From positions 32,001 to 96,000 of the forward strand of contig JBGCEP010000027.1 in NCBI GenBank assembly GCA_045106415.1: a DNA stretch of 64,000 bases, written 5' to 3'. A program made the position numbers and the translations under genes. Below are positions 41,387 through 52,007 of this stretch, in pieces. Below the pieces are notes generated by a model. The model did no database searches. It had not been told where the DNA came from and was given only the letters and a program-made list of their open reading frames with translations. This stretch comes from Oligoflexales bacterium (GTDB taxonomy: Bacteria > Bdellovibrionota_B > Oligoflexia > Oligoflexales > Bog-1112). Position 1 is the stretch's first letter; each line of letters begins with the position of its first letter.

Positions 41387-42364
41387 GTGACAGTTCAAAA
41401 AAAGTGGATCAGCCTTATAGTGCTAGGACTCACGTCCTTTGCTTATGGAAAAACTCTCTACCGCCACAACGGCGATAGTGTCACCCTTGAAAGCCTCAAC
41501 CCATCTCTGCAACAAGCTTACTATGAAGCAGAAAAAGCACACTATGACGCTTTAAGTGAAATCGCAGAGCGAGATGCATATGACCGCTACCTCAAAGACC
41601 TCTCTAAAAAGAAAAACAAAACAGTTGAGCAGGTAGAAACAGAACTTTTCGCAGCATCAGCAAGTGATGCTGATGCTAAGGCATGGTTTGATGAAAACAA
41701 ACACCGCCTAGGTGGGCGCGATTTTGATAAAATCAAAGGTGAAATCAAAACTTTTTTATCCTACCGCTTAAAAGAAGACGGTAGACATAAAATCATTGAA
41801 GATTTAAAAGAAAAAAAACAATTCTCAATGGCTTTAACAGCACCACAAAGACCTACTTTTAAAATCACAACAGATGGTTTTCCAAGCCGTGGCCCAGCAA
41901 ACGCAAAGGTCAAAATTGTCGAGTTCGCTGACTACCAGTGCCCACATTGCCAAAGAGCCGCTGAAGCTGTCAAAGACACTCTTAAAAAATTCCCTAAAAA
42001 TGTTAGTATGACTTTCTTGGACTACCCCATCAATCACTCTGGAATTTCTCGCCTTGTCGCTGAAGGTGCTGCATGTGCTCAACCTCAAGGAAAGTTCTGG
42101 GAATACCATGAGGAAGCTTTTGATAGCCAAAAAACCCTCTCAAAAGACTCACCTCTTGAAATTGCAAAAAAAGTGTCATTAGATGAGAAAAAATGGCAGC
42201 AATGCATGGATAGCGGTGAGGGTCGAAAAGTTGTCGAAGCTGGAGAAAAAGAAGCCGAACGCCTAGGCATCAGCGGAACTCCTACCATTTACATTAACGG
42301 TATTAAAATCGCAGGCTATGATCCCAAAGTGCTAGAAGAAGAGATCAGCAAAGCTTTAAAGTAA
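41387..42364 (+). CDS. DsbA/thioredoxin-family protein with N-terminal helical domain
   Basis: GTG after aaggag; 'VEFADYQCPHC', 'GTPT.YING'. Confidence 0.85.
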   Translation: MTVQKKWISLIVLGLTSFAYGKTLYRHNGDSVTLESLNPSLQQAYYEAEKAHYDALSEIAERDAYDRYLKDLSKKKNKTVEQVETELFAASASDADAKAWFDENKHRLGGRDFDKIKGEIKTFLSYRLKEDGRHKIIEDLKEKKQFSMALTAPQRPTFKITTDGFPSRGPANAKVKIVEFADYQCPHCQRAAEAVKDTLKKFPKNVSMTFLDYPINHSGISRLVAEGAACAQPQGKFWEYHEEAFDSQKTLSKDSPLEIAKKVSLDEKKWQQCMDSGEGRKVVEAGEKEAERLGISGTPTIYINGIKIAGYDPKVLEEEISKALK

Positions 42365-42388: not shown

Positions 42389-42421
42389 AGCCTCCGGCCA
42401 CAGCTGCCTGGAGGCTTTTTT
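42389..42421 (+). terminator. Rho-independent terminator
   Basis: agcctcc...ggaggct followed by a T-tract. Confidence 0.75.
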
Positions 42422-42445
42422 ATATGCCTTAGGCAAAAACGTTCT

Positions 42446-42472
42446 ATCAGCCTTTTCCTTATCGACCGATAA
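42446..42472 (+). promoter_or_regulatory. sigma28-like promoter candidate
   Basis: ATCAG-N14-ACCGATAA upstream of the FliG-domain gene; -35 element is weak. Confidence 0.4.
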
Positions 42473-42479
42473 GAATGAC

Positions 42480-44687
42480 GTGGAACTCGAAAGGCATAGA
42501 ATGAGACTTCGACGTTATAACAGCATAGCTATATGGCTCTTCTTAATTGCTATTTCTTCCAGCCGTTTGTTTGGTGCTGGAACAAAGCAAGAAGATCAGC
42601 AAATTCGACAAGAAAGTATTGCTGAAATCACAAAAACAGTCACACCACTCCTACGAAAGTATTGTAGCGATGCATGCCAACTCATTCGAGTCGATGTTGC
42701 AATCGACCACGCTCTACAAGAATCAAACGAACTTGGATTTGAAGGAGAGCAATCTCCTGAGAGTCTAGCTTATGTTGAGAAGGTTACTGTTTCCATTCAG
42801 GTAGACAGTAGAGTCACAAATTCTAACAGAGAAAGACTCGGAAAAATTCTCAATCATCACATAGAAAGCACAGGCCTACCAGCTGAAGTCAGCTGGGTTC
42901 AAATCGAACTTCCGCAAATTGGAGAATCTGCCGAGCTTGCTCAGAAACTCATCAATAAACTCCGCGCTCGAATCTCACGCTCAGTAGAAAACGTCATACA
43001 AAGCTACTGCCCTGAACAGTGCCTCTTATCAAATGTTGATGTTGATGGCCACCTTATTTCGCCAGACGAGGCCTCTGGCTTGAACCCCAGGGAAGTGATT
43101 CGCTCATCCTCAGGAAGAGGGTTTCTAAAAATTGACAGATCCAATGTTCTTATTACTATGGATAGGACACTCGGTGGAGCTGGGCGAGAACGGATTTTAA
43201 ACCTCATACAAGCTCGGACTCGATTTGTAAGCAATCTAGAAGTTGATACAAACATAACAGACTTTCCAGAGTCTCACACTGCTCGTCAAGAACGTATCAA
43301 CTCAGAAGCTGATGACCCTTATGGGCTGGAAAAACTTCGACGAGTTCTTACTTTATTCAGAGACCTTGCGGGCACGCGAGAAATTATTTCTTCTGCTAGC
43401 CATGAAAGTGAAACTGAATCCTGGATGGCTTGGCTGGGACTTCTCAGCGCAATAGCCTTAATTGGCGGCATTACCTACCAGCTCAACAATGCGAAACGTG
43501 ACGCTGCTGCGCTACTTGCTGAACCACAGACTGGGAAAAGCGAAACAGAAAACTCAGAAGTCGGTGATGAAATCCGCAAAGAGCTCAACCTAAGAATAAG
43601 AAACCAAGAAGTTCGAAAAGAACTCATAGATCTTTTCACCGAAGCCCCACGAGTTGCAAAAGAAACTTTTTCAAGGCTTCTGCAAGAAGATGGGGTGGAA
43701 GAGACTGCAAAATATGTCCACATCTTTGGAAAAATGGTCATTATGGACCTCTTGAACGATCCGAACCTACAAAGAGATCTTTATGAATTAACCGAGTATT
43801 ATCACAAATCCGATTTCGTTTTTACACTTGAAGAAGAGTGGAAGCTCTTGTCCTCGTTAAAAACACGAGTCACAGCTAGTGAAATACGTGTTCTCGCAAA
43901 AAACACAATGGATCAATTTGAATTTTTAAATCGATTAGATGCAAGTCAAATTTACAACCTTGTCGCGGATGAAAAACCGCAAGTCCAAGGTATCGTACTC
44001 ACACAAGTCGACCATAAACAACGCCGAACCGTATTCGACATGTTTAAAGGTGATGAAAAAGTTGCTCTTATGAAAGAGCTCTGTCGAGCAGATGCGATCC
44101 CTAAAGAATACCTTCAGAATGTCGCAAAAGCTCTTGGCCGAAAAGTCTTATCCAAACCAGAATTCGACACACAAAACTTAAGATCGAGTGACGTCTTACT
44201 AGATCTACTTGAAAAAGCATCTTTAAAAGAACAACGAGCCCTGATGACCAATCTCACTGAAACAAATCCTGATGCCGCACGAGCGATCAAATTAAAACTT
44301 GTTACCATCGAGATGTTACCTTTCTTAAAAGATGGACATCTCCTTGAGGTCATTATGGGCCTTGAACGTGAAGATCTCTTAACCTTCCTCAAAGGCGCAG
44401 ATGAGCACATTCTGGAGCTTCTTCTCTCACACGTACCGCAAGAACTTGCTGACAGCTGGCTAGAAGACTTAGAAAGCATTGCTTCTGTCGACGACAGTAA
44501 ATACCGCCTCGTCGAAATGATGGTCCTTGGGCGAGTCAGAAACCTCGCATCAAATGGCGCATTTAACTTGCTTGATATTAATGAGATGCTGTTCGCCGAA
44601 GCAAATGATAATTCAAATCAAGGCCCTTCACAACAGGGCCCTGATGATATGAATCTCGGCTTGAGTCCTATGAACCTTATTGCCTAA
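42480..44687 (+). CDS. Membrane-anchored FliG-domain protein (FliF-FliG fusion-like)
   Basis: Signal peptide, two repeated Cys-pair periplasmic domains, TM (aa ~315-333), FliG-M 'FEFL...DEKPQ', FliG-C 'FLKGA...WLEDLE'. ATG 42501 is an alternative start. Confidence 0.75.
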   Translation: MELERHRMRLRRYNSIAIWLFLIAISSSRLFGAGTKQEDQQIRQESIAEITKTVTPLLRKYCSDACQLIRVDVAIDHALQESNELGFEGEQSPESLAYVEKVTVSIQVDSRVTNSNRERLGKILNHHIESTGLPAEVSWVQIELPQIGESAELAQKLINKLRARISRSVENVIQSYCPEQCLLSNVDVDGHLISPDEASGLNPREVIRSSSGRGFLKIDRSNVLITMDRTLGGAGRERILNLIQARTRFVSNLEVDTNITDFPESHTARQERINSEADDPYGLEKLRRVLTLFRDLAGTREIISSASHESETESWMAWLGLLSAIALIGGITYQLNNAKRDAAALLAEPQTGKSETENSEVGDEIRKELNLRIRNQEVRKELIDLFTEAPRVAKETFSRLLQEDGVEETAKYVHIFGKMVIMDLLNDPNLQRDLYELTEYYHKSDFVFTLEEEWKLLSSLKTRVTASEIRVLAKNTMDQFEFLNRLDASQIYNLVADEKPQVQGIVLTQVDHKQRRTVFDMFKGDEKVALMKELCRADAIPKEYLQNVAKALGRKVLSKPEFDTQNLRSSDVLLDLLEKASLKEQRALMTNLTETNPDAARAIKLKLVTIEMLPFLKDGHLLEVIMGLEREDLLTFLKGADEHILELLLSHVPQELADSWLEDLESIASVDDSKYRLVEMMVLGRVRNLASNGAFNLLDINEMLFAEANDNSNQGPSQQGPDDMNLGLSPMNLIA

Positions 44688-45591
44688 GGCTCACGTCACT
44701 TTTTCGAGTTCCTTCCACAGCAATATGTGAAGGAACTTTTTGATTTTCAGTCATCTCTGTTGTATTCACATGAGACATCGCTTCTTGCAGCTGAAAATTC
44801 ACAAGAGAGCGCGGCGCCCAAAAAACTTGCGATAGCTCTTGCGCCAAGTCTCTCCTAGGATTGACATCAACAAGAGACTGCATCAATTGCGGCATAGGTA
44901 CCAATAAAGCTGCTGTAAAGAGCATTTTTTCATACTCCAACATCTCACGGTCCAATTCACCCAATTCAGGAAATTGTGAGCGCTCCGCTTCAAATACAAT
45001 TCGAGCTAAATCTCGAACCATGCTCATACGAGCATGAGCCCTGATATCTCCTTTACGGACCTGCAAAGTGTAGTGCCCCGGTTTGGTTCTTAAAACTCTC
45101 GTCAAACGATCAAAAATATCGGCCGTTTGCGTTTGAATAAAAGAAAAATAACGGAACACTTCAGGCAAGTACAAAGGCGGCGTCTGCGCTTCAGCTCTGC
45201 CTAAAAGATCATGCACAAAATTCAAAACTCTCGTCCGAGTCGGCTGTAGCTGTGAATCCACACACTCCAGAACTTTCTTTCGAATCTGTTTTTGCGCACT
45301 CAACTCTGTGTACTCATACCACGCTTCATCTAAAGTGATATGCCCCACTGCCAAGTCATGAATCAAGCCAATATCTGTGACAAGCCCATGAGCTAATTTT
45401 TCGAGAGCGAAAATAGAACGGACATTCTTTTCCCCTCGTTTCCAGTGACTACAGTCTGAGGGCGAAAAACCTAAAATCTGCCCTACTTCTTGATCATGAA
45501 CTTTGCGATCAGATCTCAAGACGAGAACCTTATGGCAAAACTTAAACAACTGCATAGAACTAGGGAACTTAACCGAACCCGTACGCCTCAT
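44677..45591 (-). CDS. XRE-like HTH fused to a degenerate ImmA/IrrE-like domain
   Basis: HTH 'DQEVGQILGFSPSDCSHWKRGEK'; 'ARMSMVRDLAR' at the HELGH position; 'EYEKMLFTAALLVP'; RBS ggagg. Confidence 0.6.
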   Translation of the reverse strand: MRRTGSVKFPSSMQLFKFCHKVLVLRSDRKVHDQEVGQILGFSPSDCSHWKRGEKNVRSIFALEKLAHGLVTDIGLIHDLAVGHITLDEAWYEYTELSAQKQIRKKVLECVDSQLQPTRTRVLNFVHDLLGRAEAQTPPLYLPEVFRYFSFIQTQTADIFDRLTRVLRTKPGHYTLQVRKGDIRAHARMSMVRDLARIVFEAERSQFPELGELDREMLEYEKMLFTAALLVPMPQLMQSLVDVNPRRDLAQELSQVFWAPRSLVNFQLQEAMSHVNTTEMTENQKVPSHIAVEGTRKSDVSLRQ

Positions 45592-48871: not shown

Positions 48872-50275
48872 TTAAAAACTATGAGTCGCAGAAAAAGCAA
48901 ATGTTGAAGAAACAGCTTCAATATCTTGAATCACTGAATCTCCAAGTTTCTGTGCCTTTCCGCTTCCTTGTTGGAACACTACACCAGCACCAATTTGACT
49001 ATTCGGTTGCACCCACGATGCAAAAAGAGAGGCACCGCTATAATCAACATGATCATTTTGACCTGCATATTGCTCACTCACTTCCGGTCTCGCATCATTA
49101 TTTGTAAAGATACCGACTCGTACCGGAACCGCTGGCACCACATAGTACTCCATACCTGCCGCTGCATTCAAGACCTGATTTCGTTCGTAGTAATAACGAT
49201 CCTTAGCAGCACCCCCATCTTGAACAGCAGCAAAGACTCCTTCTTTCTCTCCTTTAGACGCTGTTGTGAGAATAACATCTGTCGTCACAAGCAACCTTGT
49301 GGAACCAAACCATGCCACACCAGCTCTTAATTCATCTGGATATTTCGACCCTAAAGGATTGCTAGACTCTGATTCAATAAGGGTTCTTTGAATACCAGCT
49401 GTACTCTTCGTAGGTATCATTCCACCATTTGCTTCTTCAACAGACGTATTATCAGCGGAAACTAGCTGGAGATTAAGGCCCTCTGTCGCCACATCATACA
49501 GTTGACTGACATAGGCTCCTCCGATTTTTGCAGTCAAACCGAGGGCAACATCTCCAAAAACATACTGAGCACCAAAAACAGGTTGGATTGCCATAGCACT
49601 TAAGGATTCTCGTACATTCAAAGCGCGACGCGTGTAATTATTTGTACATGATTCTGACTGGCTCACATCCTGATAAACCTGTGTCAACTCATCAATCCCA
49701 TAATAGTTCAACCCAAAACCTAAAGAGAAATTATTCGAAATTCTATAACCAGCTCCAGCCGCATACAATGAGGTTGTCGCTTTTTGGTTCACAACTCGAT
49801 GATACCGGTGAAGAAGGTTTGAACCACTTGTACCATCATCACAGGTTCTTGAGCTCAACACCTGAGCCTCATTCTCTTTAATCAGATCGTTCTGCTCTTT
49901 TTGCTCCCCATCAAGAGTCATAATCCCAAAAGCAAACACAAGACCTTTTTCAATATGATCCAACTTATTCAACCCTCCAAAGAAAGACGGCAGGCTCCCT
50001 CCGCTTTCTTCGACAAAGTCTTTACCTGCAATTGTGCCCTTATATGTGACTGTTCTGCTGTAGAGTGCGTTAGCAGAACCTGAAATATCGTTTGAAAGTG
50101 CAAAAGCCAAGCCTGCTGGGTTATAAAAAACACCAGAGGCATCATCAGAAACACCAACAAACGCGCCTCCTAGGCCAATCGCTCTATCTCCAATCAAAAC
50201 ATTTGAATAGTGGTATTGATCAGCCAGGGCCTGAACAGGAACACTCAATAACAGCATCAATAAAACATGGTGCAT
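48872..50275 (-). CDS. FadL/TodX/OmpP1-like outer-membrane transporter
   Basis: Signal peptide; 'GDRA.GLGGAF..V.DD.S..FYNPAGLA'; C-terminal Phe. Confidence 0.7.
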   Translation of the reverse strand: MHHVLLMLLLSVPVQALADQYHYSNVLIGDRAIGLGGAFVGVSDDASGVFYNPAGLAFALSNDISGSANALYSRTVTYKGTIAGKDFVEESGGSLPSFFGGLNKLDHIEKGLVFAFGIMTLDGEQKEQNDLIKENEAQVLSSRTCDDGTSGSNLLHRYHRVVNQKATTSLYAAGAGYRISNNFSLGFGLNYYGIDELTQVYQDVSQSESCTNNYTRRALNVRESLSAMAIQPVFGAQYVFGDVALGLTAKIGGAYVSQLYDVATEGLNLQLVSADNTSVEEANGGMIPTKSTAGIQRTLIESESSNPLGSKYPDELRAGVAWFGSTRLLVTTDVILTTASKGEKEGVFAAVQDGGAAKDRYYYERNQVLNAAAGMEYYVVPAVPVRVGIFTNNDARPEVSEQYAGQNDHVDYSGASLFASWVQPNSQIGAGVVFQQGSGKAQKLGDSVIQDIEAVSSTFAFSATHSF

Positions 50276-50302
50276 AGCTCTTCTCCGTATGGTTGTTTGA
50301 AA

Positions 50303-51286
50303 TTATATTTTTGTGTTCTTTCTAGATTGAGGAAGAACTTTATAAAACTGTTGATATCTTTCTTTACCAATCGCACCCACCATTTGATGAGCTTTCATGC
50401 TTCGCAGTAGTTTTACAATTTTACGTTGTCGATTGATCACTGTGGGATGAGTTTTCTCAAGAGTTTTAAGTTTCGTATGTTTTTTACCTTGCTCTAAGCG
50501 CTGTAAAAAATGCAACATTCCTTTTGGCTCATAACCCGCTCGAATAGCATACTTGACCCCTAGCTGATCGGCCTCATACTCTAATTTTTGATCAAGCCCT
50601 TTTTCCAGAATAACTGACATACCCGCAGAGGCTGCTTGAAGTAAGCTAAGACCTGTTCCAGAGGAGCCTGAAAGATATCGAGCGAGCTTATCACCTGTTG
50701 CTGACTTTTCAGCATCAGGACGTTTGCGAACACGCATCGAGTATGGCTTTCCTTTTTCATTTTTCTTTCTGCTATCTAATTCTTTTGCTTGATCTGTTCT
50801 TTCCTTTTCATCCATTGACCGCAAAGTATCAAACATATGACGACGGCCAACATGGGCAACCTCATGCCCCAGAATCGCTGCTAATTCAGCTTCTGTTTTA
50901 ATCTTTTTCAACGCTCCAAGAGTAATTAAAATATACCCTCCTGGGCATGCAAAAGCGTTCACAGCTTCCGTATCCAAAATAGCAAACATATAGCGACGCT
51001 CAGGAGCATCACTGTAAGTGCCTATGTAGTTTCCTACTTTATTTAAGTATTCAACTGTCGAACGATCACCATAAGTTCCATAATACGTAAGGAGACGGCC
51101 AGCCATATTACGACCAATTTCAACCTCTGCTTGATATTCTTCTACTTTTTTCTGCAACGCTTTCTTTTGGCTAGAAAGTTTCACTTCAGAAGCACATCCT
51201 GCTCCCAAAGTTGCTACCAAAGCAGCAATGCAAAAAATATAAAGATCGTTTTTTTTGAACCGAAACCGCATGCAAGCCTCATTCAT
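50303..51286 (-). CDS. M48 family metallopeptidase lipoprotein
   Basis: Lipobox GAGC; 'NAFACPGG', HEVAH, 'E.EAD..G...A..AGY.P', THP. Confidence 0.88.
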   Translation of the reverse strand: MNEACMRFRFKKNDLYIFCIAALVATLGAGCASEVKLSSQKKALQKKVEEYQAEVEIGRNMAGRLLTYYGTYGDRSTVEYLNKVGNYIGTYSDAPERRYMFAILDTEAVNAFACPGGYILITLGALKKIKTEAELAAILGHEVAHVGRRHMFDTLRSMDEKERTDQAKELDSRKKNEKGKPYSMRVRKRPDAEKSATGDKLARYLSGSSGTGLSLLQAASAGMSVILEKGLDQKLEYEADQLGVKYAIRAGYEPKGMLHFLQRLEQGKKHTKLKTLEKTHPTVINRQRKIVKLLRSMKAHQMVGAIGKERYQQFYKVLPQSRKNTKI

Positions 51287-51433
51287 CTCAAATAGCTATA
51301 TAGAGATATTGTATTGCGTGGCTTTCAAAGGGTGTGAGGCAAAAAGTAGTCACTTTTAATCGCTGAACTTATTAAATCCAAAACAAATGCACTGTCAAAA
51401 ATAACCTTCGCCACCGCACACTAGGTTTTCACA

Positions 51434-51468
51434 AAAAAACCAGTAACCTCAATTGTTACTGGTTTTTT
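51434..51468. terminator. Rho-independent terminator (bidirectional form) after the SH3 gene
   Basis: aaaaaaccagtaac-ctcaatt-gttactggtttttt. Confidence 0.75.
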
Positions 51469-51497
51469 AAAAATCGTTTATTTATTGGATAATGCCG

Positions 51498-52007
51498 TCA
51501 CTTAGCTCTTTTCTCAAGTTCTGCAAAAACCATATTTTCATGTTTTTTTATGTCCTTACGAGAAAGAACGACATCTTCCATATTATAAACATGTCTGAGA
51601 TTCGGCTTAACATTTCCAGCAAATGCTGTTTCCTCACTCTCATCCAAACCTCTCACACCCATCACAGCAGATCTTTGTCGATTGTTACCAGCATCATTTT
51701 CATCACGGCCTTGTTTCACAGCCTCACGAATCGCCCCAGCAAGACCATCCTCTTCTTTAGAGACCTTATGCGTCACTTTCGTGATAGATATATAAGCAAT
51801 TGCACCCTTCACTTTAACTTGCCAATACATCCCCTCTCTTTCAACACTATCTAAAGTGTCGCCCTTTTTAAGGGTCTGTACCACAGGCGATTTTTTGCTT
51901 GGCTTTGAATACACCAAAGCTTTTTTCTTCTTAACTACAACAGTACCGGCATACAACGGACTGACCATCCAAAACGCTAAAAAGCTTAAAGTTATCAAAT
52001 TTTTCAT
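51498..52007 (-). CDS. Secreted SH3b-domain protein
   Basis: Signal peptide; 'P...S.VV..L.KGD.L......G.YW.V.....AYI'; C-terminal 'GVRGL'. Confidence 0.75.
   Translation of the reverse strand: MKNLITLSFLAFWMVSPLYAGTVVVKKKKALVYSKPSKKSPVVQTLKKGDTLDSVEREGMYWQVKVKGAIAYISITKVTHKVSKEEDGLAGAIREAVKQGRDENDAGNNRQRSAVMGVRGLDESEETAFAGNVKPNLRHVYNMEDVVLSRKDIKKHENMVFAELEKRAK

Follow-up and report, generated by a model that had tools for sequence, protein, structure and literature searches.

What does a bacterium make of a protein that joins FliF-like ring-building domains (RBM) and FliG in one chain, when it also encodes FliF and FliG as separate proteins? An open reading frame of 735 codons, counted from GTG 42480 (42480-44687, + strand), raises this question in a 64,000-nt stretch of an Oligoflexales genome (assembly GCA_045106415.1, contig JBGCEP010000027.1, positions 32,001 to 96,000), called the window below. 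We give a probability of roughly 0.6 to the reading that the fusion serves, in a single chain, as the rotor of a rotor-stator motor of the cell envelope that is neither switched nor flagellar and is coupled to the outer membrane. This reading is built on the domain order of the fusion, its co-inheritance with partner genes, operon linkage in relatives, reciprocal charge changes and a promoter motif, from which we infer the ring, its rotation and its output.

The true start of the gene is probably ATG 42501 (728 aa), since a 728-aa database record (P0002) that matches this ATG, a GAAAGG ribosome-binding site 6 nt upstream of it and a sigma-28-type promoter, read from the sequence to end at 42472, all fit. 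Residue numbers are counted from GTG 42480. The domain order is a signal peptide, two FliF-RBM3-like units, one membrane helix and then FliG N, M and C (rmsd, root mean square deviation):

42501..44687, + strand: two-RBM FliF-FliG fusion gene (open reading frame and 728-aa record; 735 aa if started at GTG 42480)
42501..42578, + strand: signal-peptide-like N-terminal segment (hydropathy peak 1.67; hydrophobic N-terminus in 90 of 119 family members)
42579..42914, + strand: periplasmic unit 1, RBM3-like, residues 34-145, with Cys62 and Cys66 and an invariant GF in the insert (fold and profile links)
42921..43268, + strand: periplasmic unit 2, RBM3-like, residues 148-263, with Cys177 and Cys181 (fold and homology to unit 1)
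43314..43385, + strand: family-specific conserved helix DPYGL...TREII before the membrane, residues 279-302 (modelled helix; invariant columns D279, P280, L283, L286, L290 and T299)
43422..43478, + strand: single transmembrane helix, residues ~315-333 (model and hydropathy)
43593..43913, + strand: FliF-C-like helices, residues 372-402 (by position alone), and FliG-N-like domain, residues 403-478 (structural alignment)
43914..44153, + strand: FliG middle domain with EKPQ for EHPQ (Pfam PF14841, 39.7 bits, cut-off 25; 4fq0, Z 13.7, rmsd 1.6)
44250..44570, + strand: FliG C-terminal domain with an acidic torque helix, E655, E662, D663 and D671 (Pfam PF01706, 46.9 bits, cut-off 23.3; 1qc7, Z 13.0, rmsd 1.8)

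In a homologue search with the fusion, 213 of 7999 scored candidates matched at E<=0.001. The 120 matches listed are 40-78% identical and near full length, and the few that are named come mostly from Oligoflexales or Bdellovibrionota. A second search, started from a distant member, gave more full-length relatives, several of them named as Bdellovibrionales, Oligoflexia or Bacteriovoracia. The cytoplasmic half, which an earlier note on this sequence had assigned to FliG by eye, is matched by FliG_M (residues 489-558) and FliG_C (residues 591-697) above the Pfam cut-offs, as are 54 of 54 family members, while the fusion does not reach the fliG equivalog TIGR00207 (67.4 bits, cut-off 226.7). An AlphaFold model from 119 sequences has a mean pLDDT (predicted local distance difference test) of 85.6 and a pTM (predicted template modelling score) of 0.40, and its cytoplasmic half is helical. 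The best Foldseek match is full-length FliG (E 2.6e-9), followed by FliF (E 1.6e-5). Model residues 403-697 align with FliG 4-323 over 289 residues (Z 14.4), with an rmsd of 12.9 because the inter-domain angles differ. Segment 372-402 is helical and lies at the position of FliF-C, with an in-register profile match to FliF-C below significance; the FliF-C and FliG-N segments gave no significant HHalign match to the sequence profiles of clade FliF-C and FliG-N. The membrane helix predicted by the earlier note at about residues 315-333 is present in the model; an internal hydrophobic peak above 1.6 occurs in all 119 members (median 2.6), and in this fusion it is weak (1.62 at 314-332).

The same note had proposed a signal peptide followed by two homologous periplasmic units of split alpha/beta topology with Cys pairs, and all of this was recovered. 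The two units are homologous (profile-profile probability 97.9%, E 3e-13, 105 columns), each is modelled as helix-strand-insert-strand-helix-strand, and the cysteines are conserved in 118 of 119 (C62 and C66) and 119 of 119 members (C177 and C181). Its further claim that both units are RBM3-like stands by fold and through one-RBM relatives, not by direct sequence comparison. In VIA-align, unit 1 aligns with RBM3 of Vibrio FliF (8z5v, Z 11.1, rmsd 3.2, 100 aligned) and unit 2 with RBM3 of Salmonella FliF (7d84, Z 10.4, rmsd 2.3, 96 aligned). In profile comparisons, unit 1 matches the periplasmic domain of one-RBM FliG fusions at 98-99% (77% against their classical subset alone), and the classical one-RBM fusions in turn match clade FliF RBM3 (94%, E 1.4e-7). 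A YscJ_FliF_C Pfam match was seen in 3 of 17 scanned relatives, one of them above the cut-off. PF01514 (YscJ_FliF, the TM1-RBM1-RBM2 region) has no match in the fusion, nor among the 25 families shown for 54 members, and its sole match in the source genome (G000) is a gene on contig C30. The inserts of the two units are ~17 and ~21 residues long in the model, versus FliF spans of ~200 residues with ~100 aligned. ESM Atlas returned sub-threshold leads alone for the periplasmic part (FliF-C cluster, 0.85), and a complex prediction with three copies of residues 34-265 scored 0.40 against a mark of 0.42.

The fusion is co-inherited with a stator and outer-membrane partners of its own, whose genes lie elsewhere in the genome. 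The earlier note had stated that no flagellar, stator or export genes lie nearby; for the stator this is true within the window, but a dedicated stator and further partners lie on other contigs, so that the module is scattered in the source genome over three loci on three contigs, with the rotor in the window, the stator on C4 and the envelope partners on C10:

C4, 94764-96240: MotA*/MotB* stator pair, orthologous to operon genes of family f18 (MotA* 43-46% identity)
C10, 15588-16265: X0, a module gene in the host's order only
C10, 16330-17553: X1, LpoB/TolB-N/FlgT-type domain and 8-stranded barrel, orthologous to an f18 operon gene
C10, 17513-18292: X2, TPR protein with a lipobox-like Cys, orthologous to an f18 operon gene
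C10, 18289-19116: X3, a module gene in the host's order only

In all five inspected loci of the f18 family that reach far enough (L097, L098, L099, L104, L106), these genes form an operon X1-X2-motA*-motB*-fusion, and a metagenome locus (L168) has the order X1-X2-fusion-motA-motB, plus a divergent X0. X2 directly follows X1 in 34 of 34 loci. MotA* is an A subunit of the PomA/MotA type, and MotB* carries the channel Asp (29 of 29) as well as plug and OmpA domains above cut-off; both score below the equivalog cut-offs of named flagellar stators. In a tree of 34 sequences, the module stators (MotA*, L168 and one-RBM) group with flagellar MotA/PomA, apart from ExbB/TolQ, and MotA* forms its own branch (support 90/71). 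The model of X1 combines a periplasmic domain of LpoB/TolB-N type (4q6l, Z 10.4), which also matches FlgT weakly in Foldseek (E 3e-3), with an 8-stranded barrel of OmpA/NspA type (Z 16.6); by sequence, X1 matched nothing in PDB or NCBIfam and nothing noteworthy in Pfam, and ESM Atlas gave nothing useful for X0. Other MotA pairs of the source genome (on C30, C10 and C70) were rejected as the operon partner, and a 457-aa gene beside X3 was rejected as a module part since it also matches in module-negative genomes.

The co-occurrence profiling for MotA/ExbB-like genes suggested in the earlier note led to the co-inherited MotA*/MotB* pair and the envelope partners. Among 86 genomes with a completeness of at least 90%, the fusion occurs in 55, MotA* in 57 and X1 in the same 57, and all 55 fusion genomes have both; the two genomes with MotA* and X1 that gave no fusion match are 90% drafts. 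X0 (43 genomes) and X3 (39) fall entirely within the 57 and are absent from f18, whereas a neighbouring control gene also matches module-negative genomes. All three unlinked loci are missing from 29 of the 86 genomes, of which 20 keep FliF and canonical FliG and nine have neither. These 20 represent seven genera, two of which also have module-positive members; in one of them (G038) FliF is only partial. A first reading as a flagellar accessory (24/29 flagellated versus 0/11 non-flagellated relatives) was demoted after the stator and partner profiles. On plasmids only ordinary FliG was found. Among cultured bacteria, the fusion, MotA* and X1 are all present in Oligoflexus tunisiensis Shr3; the part of PMC5154148 available describes this strain as non-motile in culture.

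The source genome (93.8% complete) also has FliF on C30 and an orphan canonical FliG on C52 (21908-22903), so the fusion is an extra and not the genome's only FliG. FliF lies in an operon resembling flgB-flgC-fliF-fliH-fliI-fliJ that has no fliG (C30, 53539-59417), unlike G041 and G042, where fliG adjoins fliF. We found single copies of FlhA, FliP and FliA in this genome and two FliMN_C proteins, one the size of FliM and one the size of FliN, but no second export gate or C-ring set (extra FlhA, FliP, FliM or FliN). A second, diverged FliG of 336 aa is encoded on C27 (146227-147237; L002) and scores 196 bits against TIGR00207, under the cut-off; most flagellated relatives have a second FliG-sized match, so that members of the class seem to have a pair of FliG paralogues in addition to the fusion. 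With repeats that model as RBM folds, a cytoplasmic half that matches FliG_M and FliG_C, and torque residues that differ from the canonical ones, the observation of the earlier note is confirmed and its interpretation supported.

The altered torque residues look like an interface recoded for the dedicated stator, not like a lost one. On an ungapped alignment to Salmonella FliG, R281 corresponds to E655, R297 to D671 and MFxF to LVTI, as had been read by eye. Across the fusion family, all 119 members have Glu at the R281 position (acidic in 53 of 54 of a deeper set), the D288 position is Glu and the D289 position Asp or Glu in all 119, and the R297 position is Asp or Glu in 106; EKPQ replaces EHPQ, RS the Gly-Gly hinge and LVT[VI] the MFxF motif. 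Canonical FliG of the same clade has Arg or Lys at 281 and 297, EHPQ, GG and MFxF, each in 23 of 23. The His of EHPQ and the Gly-Gly hinge have their roles in FliM binding and in switching. For E. coli, the available text of PMC12505986 describes two charge pairs, MotA R90 with FliG D288/D289 and MotA E98 with FliG R281. The R90 position of MotA* is Arg in 35 of 35 sequences, while none of the 35 has an acidic residue at the ungapped E98 position, and 33 have Arg or Lys three residues further on. Of the two charge pairs, one is thus kept and the other has gone from rotor and stator alike, a pattern that we read as a recoded, private interface. Most classical one-RBM relatives retain Arg or Lys at 281, and the recoding is therefore lineage-specific.

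These one-RBM relatives also occur in modules. In G006 (93% complete) and G018 (96%), the fusion adjoins motA, motB and a TPR gene, and in G006 also an X1-like gene; FliF, canonical FliG, FlhA and flagellin were searched in both genomes and none was found (positive control G013). One-RBM fusions of 554-755 aa were further seen at seven loci (L250-L256, in G006, G018, G002, G079, G024, G030 and G013), six of them with an adjacent MotA. A second module type (L091-L095, in G029, G028, G024, G032 and G020) has a one-RBM fusion of 550-590 aa amid about ten conserved genes for exported proteins, with a divergent motA/motB pair in the three loci that extend far enough. Several genomes carry at least two module types.

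Two predicted signals lie upstream of the fusion gene:

42389..42422, + strand: terminator-like hairpin with a U-tract, 3' of a dsbA-like gene (predicted fold -16.7 kcal/mol, z -2.87)
42446..42472, + strand: sigma-28 (FliA)-type promoter, ATCAG-N14-ACCGATAA (consensus match alone)

The predicted hairpin, whose stem is bulged, was equalled in stability by 1 of 200 shuffles and is not among the entries of a simple terminator scan; it would separate the fusion gene from the upstream operon. The motif TTAAG-N14-RCCGAT is described in PMC3627812, in the text available to us, as the FliA attack-phase promoter of Bdellovibrio and a global attack-phase signal there. At a score of at least 11 of 13, it precedes 18 of 43 fusion orthologs (shuffles: mean 0.3, maximum 2) and 0-2 members in each of 14 neighbouring gene families; four loci with a short flank or fragments were left out, and some of those counted are near-identical kin. 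It is also enriched upstream of X1 (7 of 28, shuffles 0.2). In the source genome the motif precedes 66 of 2142 open reading frames and therefore marks a phase, not a flagellar part. The top-scoring sites genome-wide lie mostly 5' of uncharacterised genes that are lipoprotein-like by eye, rather than of flagellar ones.

We propose the following mechanism. The fusion would be exported by Sec, and each RBM would be stapled by a disulfide. Copies would pack side by side into periplasmic rings, with one helix per chain spanning the membrane and FliG-M/C stacking into a cytoplasmic cog ring. MotA*/MotB* units would anchor to peptidoglycan via the OmpA domain, ions would pass the invariant MotB Asp42, and the all-acidic torque helix would be pushed by the invariant MotA Arg92 and Arg/Lys103. 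Such a motor would turn one way, without chemotactic switching, because the EHPQ His and the Gly-Gly hinge are gone and there is no second FliM/FliN set. It would export nothing, as it has no RBM1/RBM2 cuff and no second export gate, and its work would pass via X2 and X1 to the outer membrane. The likeliest job would be mechanical work on the cell surface in a sigma-28-controlled motile phase, e.g., moving or remodelling outer-membrane components during surface contact; we offer this job tentatively, as the weakest step.

How does this module compare with known machines? It shares with the flagellar MS-ring/C-ring and MotA5B2/PomA5B2 the RBM3 fold, the one membrane helix, the order of FliG N/M/C, the acidic D288/D289 positions, the MotA R90 position and the MotB Asp, plug and OmpA domain. 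Unlike the flagellar rotor, however, the fusion is a natural single chain that lacks TM1, RBM1 and RBM2, has two short-insert RBM3-like units with Cys pairs, is changed at R281, R297, the EHPQ His, Gly-Gly and MFxF, has its own stator and outer-membrane partners and is inherited apart from flagellar genes. Engineered FliF-FliG fusions form rings and rotate, according to the available parts of PMC7355467 and PMC4768692. The Chlamydiaceae FliF-FliG fusion, for which an injectisome role was proposed (Bergeron 2016, PMC4768692), is likewise a natural join of two RBM-type domains to a FliG part outside the flagellum, but, as far as the accessible text describes it, it has ~330 aa, two membrane helices and FliG-M only, whereas the present fusion has 728 aa, a complete FliG with its torque domain, and a stator of its own. 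Zorya ZorAB and the Ton/Tol/Agl-type 5:2 ion motors are, like the module, MotAB-family ion motors outside the flagellum with envelope partners, but the module stator is of the flagellar type; when Zorya profiles were run against seven proteins, only MotB* matched (ZorB models) and ZorA, ZorC, ZorD and ZorE gave no match. We know of no FliG ring in the Zorya and Ton/Tol/Agl motors. The TPR and small-barrel parts list presumably recalls the Agl-Glt gliding machinery. The module would work like a FliF-FliG-MotAB core, yet it belongs neither with FliF or FliG nor with a second flagellum, the Chlamydia fusion or Zorya.

Several results weigh against an independent rotary motor. HHalign of either unit directly against clade FliF (single sequences or profiles of 20-23) was not significant, and C-terminal domains of cation-diffusion facilitators (CDF) tie with FliF RBM3 (Z 10.3, ~80 aligned), so the fold alone is not unique to FliF. 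The beta-insert of ~20 residues is too short for a FliF-type beta-collar. On the stator side, a gapped alignment to Vibrio PomA instead puts E102 of MotA* at the E98 position (a Glu in 13 of 35 sequences), and the L168 MotA, which has no Arg motif, falls among the stators of one-RBM modules and apart from MotA*, so there has been exchange of stator partners. Upstream regions of motA* show no enrichment of the sigma-28 motif (2 of 28). The profiled genomes are kin, and their counts are therefore not independent events. Finally, the two-RBM fusion occurs in none of the nine genomes without FliF; in this class, the two-RBM form is thus never found apart from the flagellum.

Could the ring be static? 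In a non-rotary energy transducer or envelope sensor, the turning stator would strain or gate an outer-membrane partner by a TonB/Tol-like or Zorya-like logic. X1 is embedded in the membrane and would hinder free rotation, the fold of its periplasmic domain is that of TolB-N/LpoB, and the neighbours inspected include no filament, rod or other load that would rotate. We nevertheless regard this explanation as unlikely, since conservation is strong in the FliG ARM stacking domains and in the acidic torque helix, MotA* is not of the ExbB/TolQ type, and the Zorya match is limited to a generic ZorB/MotB one.

Alternatively, the module could be an optional addition to the flagellum's own motor (e.g., a second rotor ring on the outside, a clutch, or a bushing where the flagellum is sheathed), with MotA*B* as extra stators. 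The confinement of the two-RBM form to genomes with FliF would fit, as would the sigma-28 motif before the fusion and X1, the weak FlgT match of X1, the scattering of the flagellar genes themselves in the source genome and the three MotAB pairs of B. bacteriovorus that PMC11323537, in the portion available, regards as flagellar. This account is nonetheless rather improbable, as 20 genomes that encode FliF and FliG have none of the three loci, the Glu of an ordinary MotA would be repelled by the charges on this rotor, the motif is spread over the genome and is a global attack-phase signal in Bdellovibrio (PMC3627812, text available), and relatives with one RBM exist in genomes where no flagellar genes were detected. 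A FliG paralogue in decay, or a membrane protein that has metal-binding domains of CDF type and resembles FliG only remotely, is barely credible despite the low TIGR00207 score and the fold tie with CDF domains, given an intact family that is full-length in hundreds of records, many invariant residues, co-inheritance with a stator and the profile link to FliF RBM3 via relatives.

The usual upstream neighbours of the fusion (46 named loci and the window) encode a MinD-like ATPase, a DnaJ/HTH (helix-turn-helix) protein, an RluD-like protein, an L,D-transpeptidase and a DsbA-like protein; we set all of them aside as module parts on account of the terminator-like hairpin and the fusion's own putative promoter. 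The DsbA-like gene (window 41387-42364) is present in 28 of 47 fusion loci, mostly immediately upstream, and the fusion has four conserved periplasmic cysteines. HTH/IrrE-like paralogues, assigned by eye and weak Pfam matches, lie beside the fusion (window 44677-45591, - strand) and beside motA* (C4, 93733-94620, - strand); the latter is kept in 14 of 21 loci, and the former was not seen in other fusion loci. A single run of genes for an SH3 protein, an M48 peptidase and a FadL-like barrel (by eye) lies at 48872-52007 of the window (- strand).

A literature search, with supplements and subscription papers outside its coverage, found no description of the module. This analysis adds the scatter of the module over three loci, its co-inheritance, the reciprocal change of charges, the link to sigma-28 and a host in culture. 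To our knowledge, MotAB-driven FliG rings are known only from flagella, and a rotor-stator pair standing on its own would represent a motor type new to bacteria. It has implications for the origin of the flagellar motor, offers a natural orthogonal rotor-stator pair for the rules of torque generation and shows how such a machine hides, with its genes on three contigs under flagellar annotations. It is possible, at somewhat less than even odds, that the module represents a minimal ion-driven rotary motor of ring protein, stator pair and outer-membrane coupling, without rod, filament, export gate or switch, whose charges were recoded against flagellar cross-talk and which, as part of a multi-phylum superfamily, powers attack-phase surface activity in Bdellovibrionota-like bacteria. 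If so, this superfamily could be a living model of the rotor-stator core, either from the time before it joined type III export or from after it.

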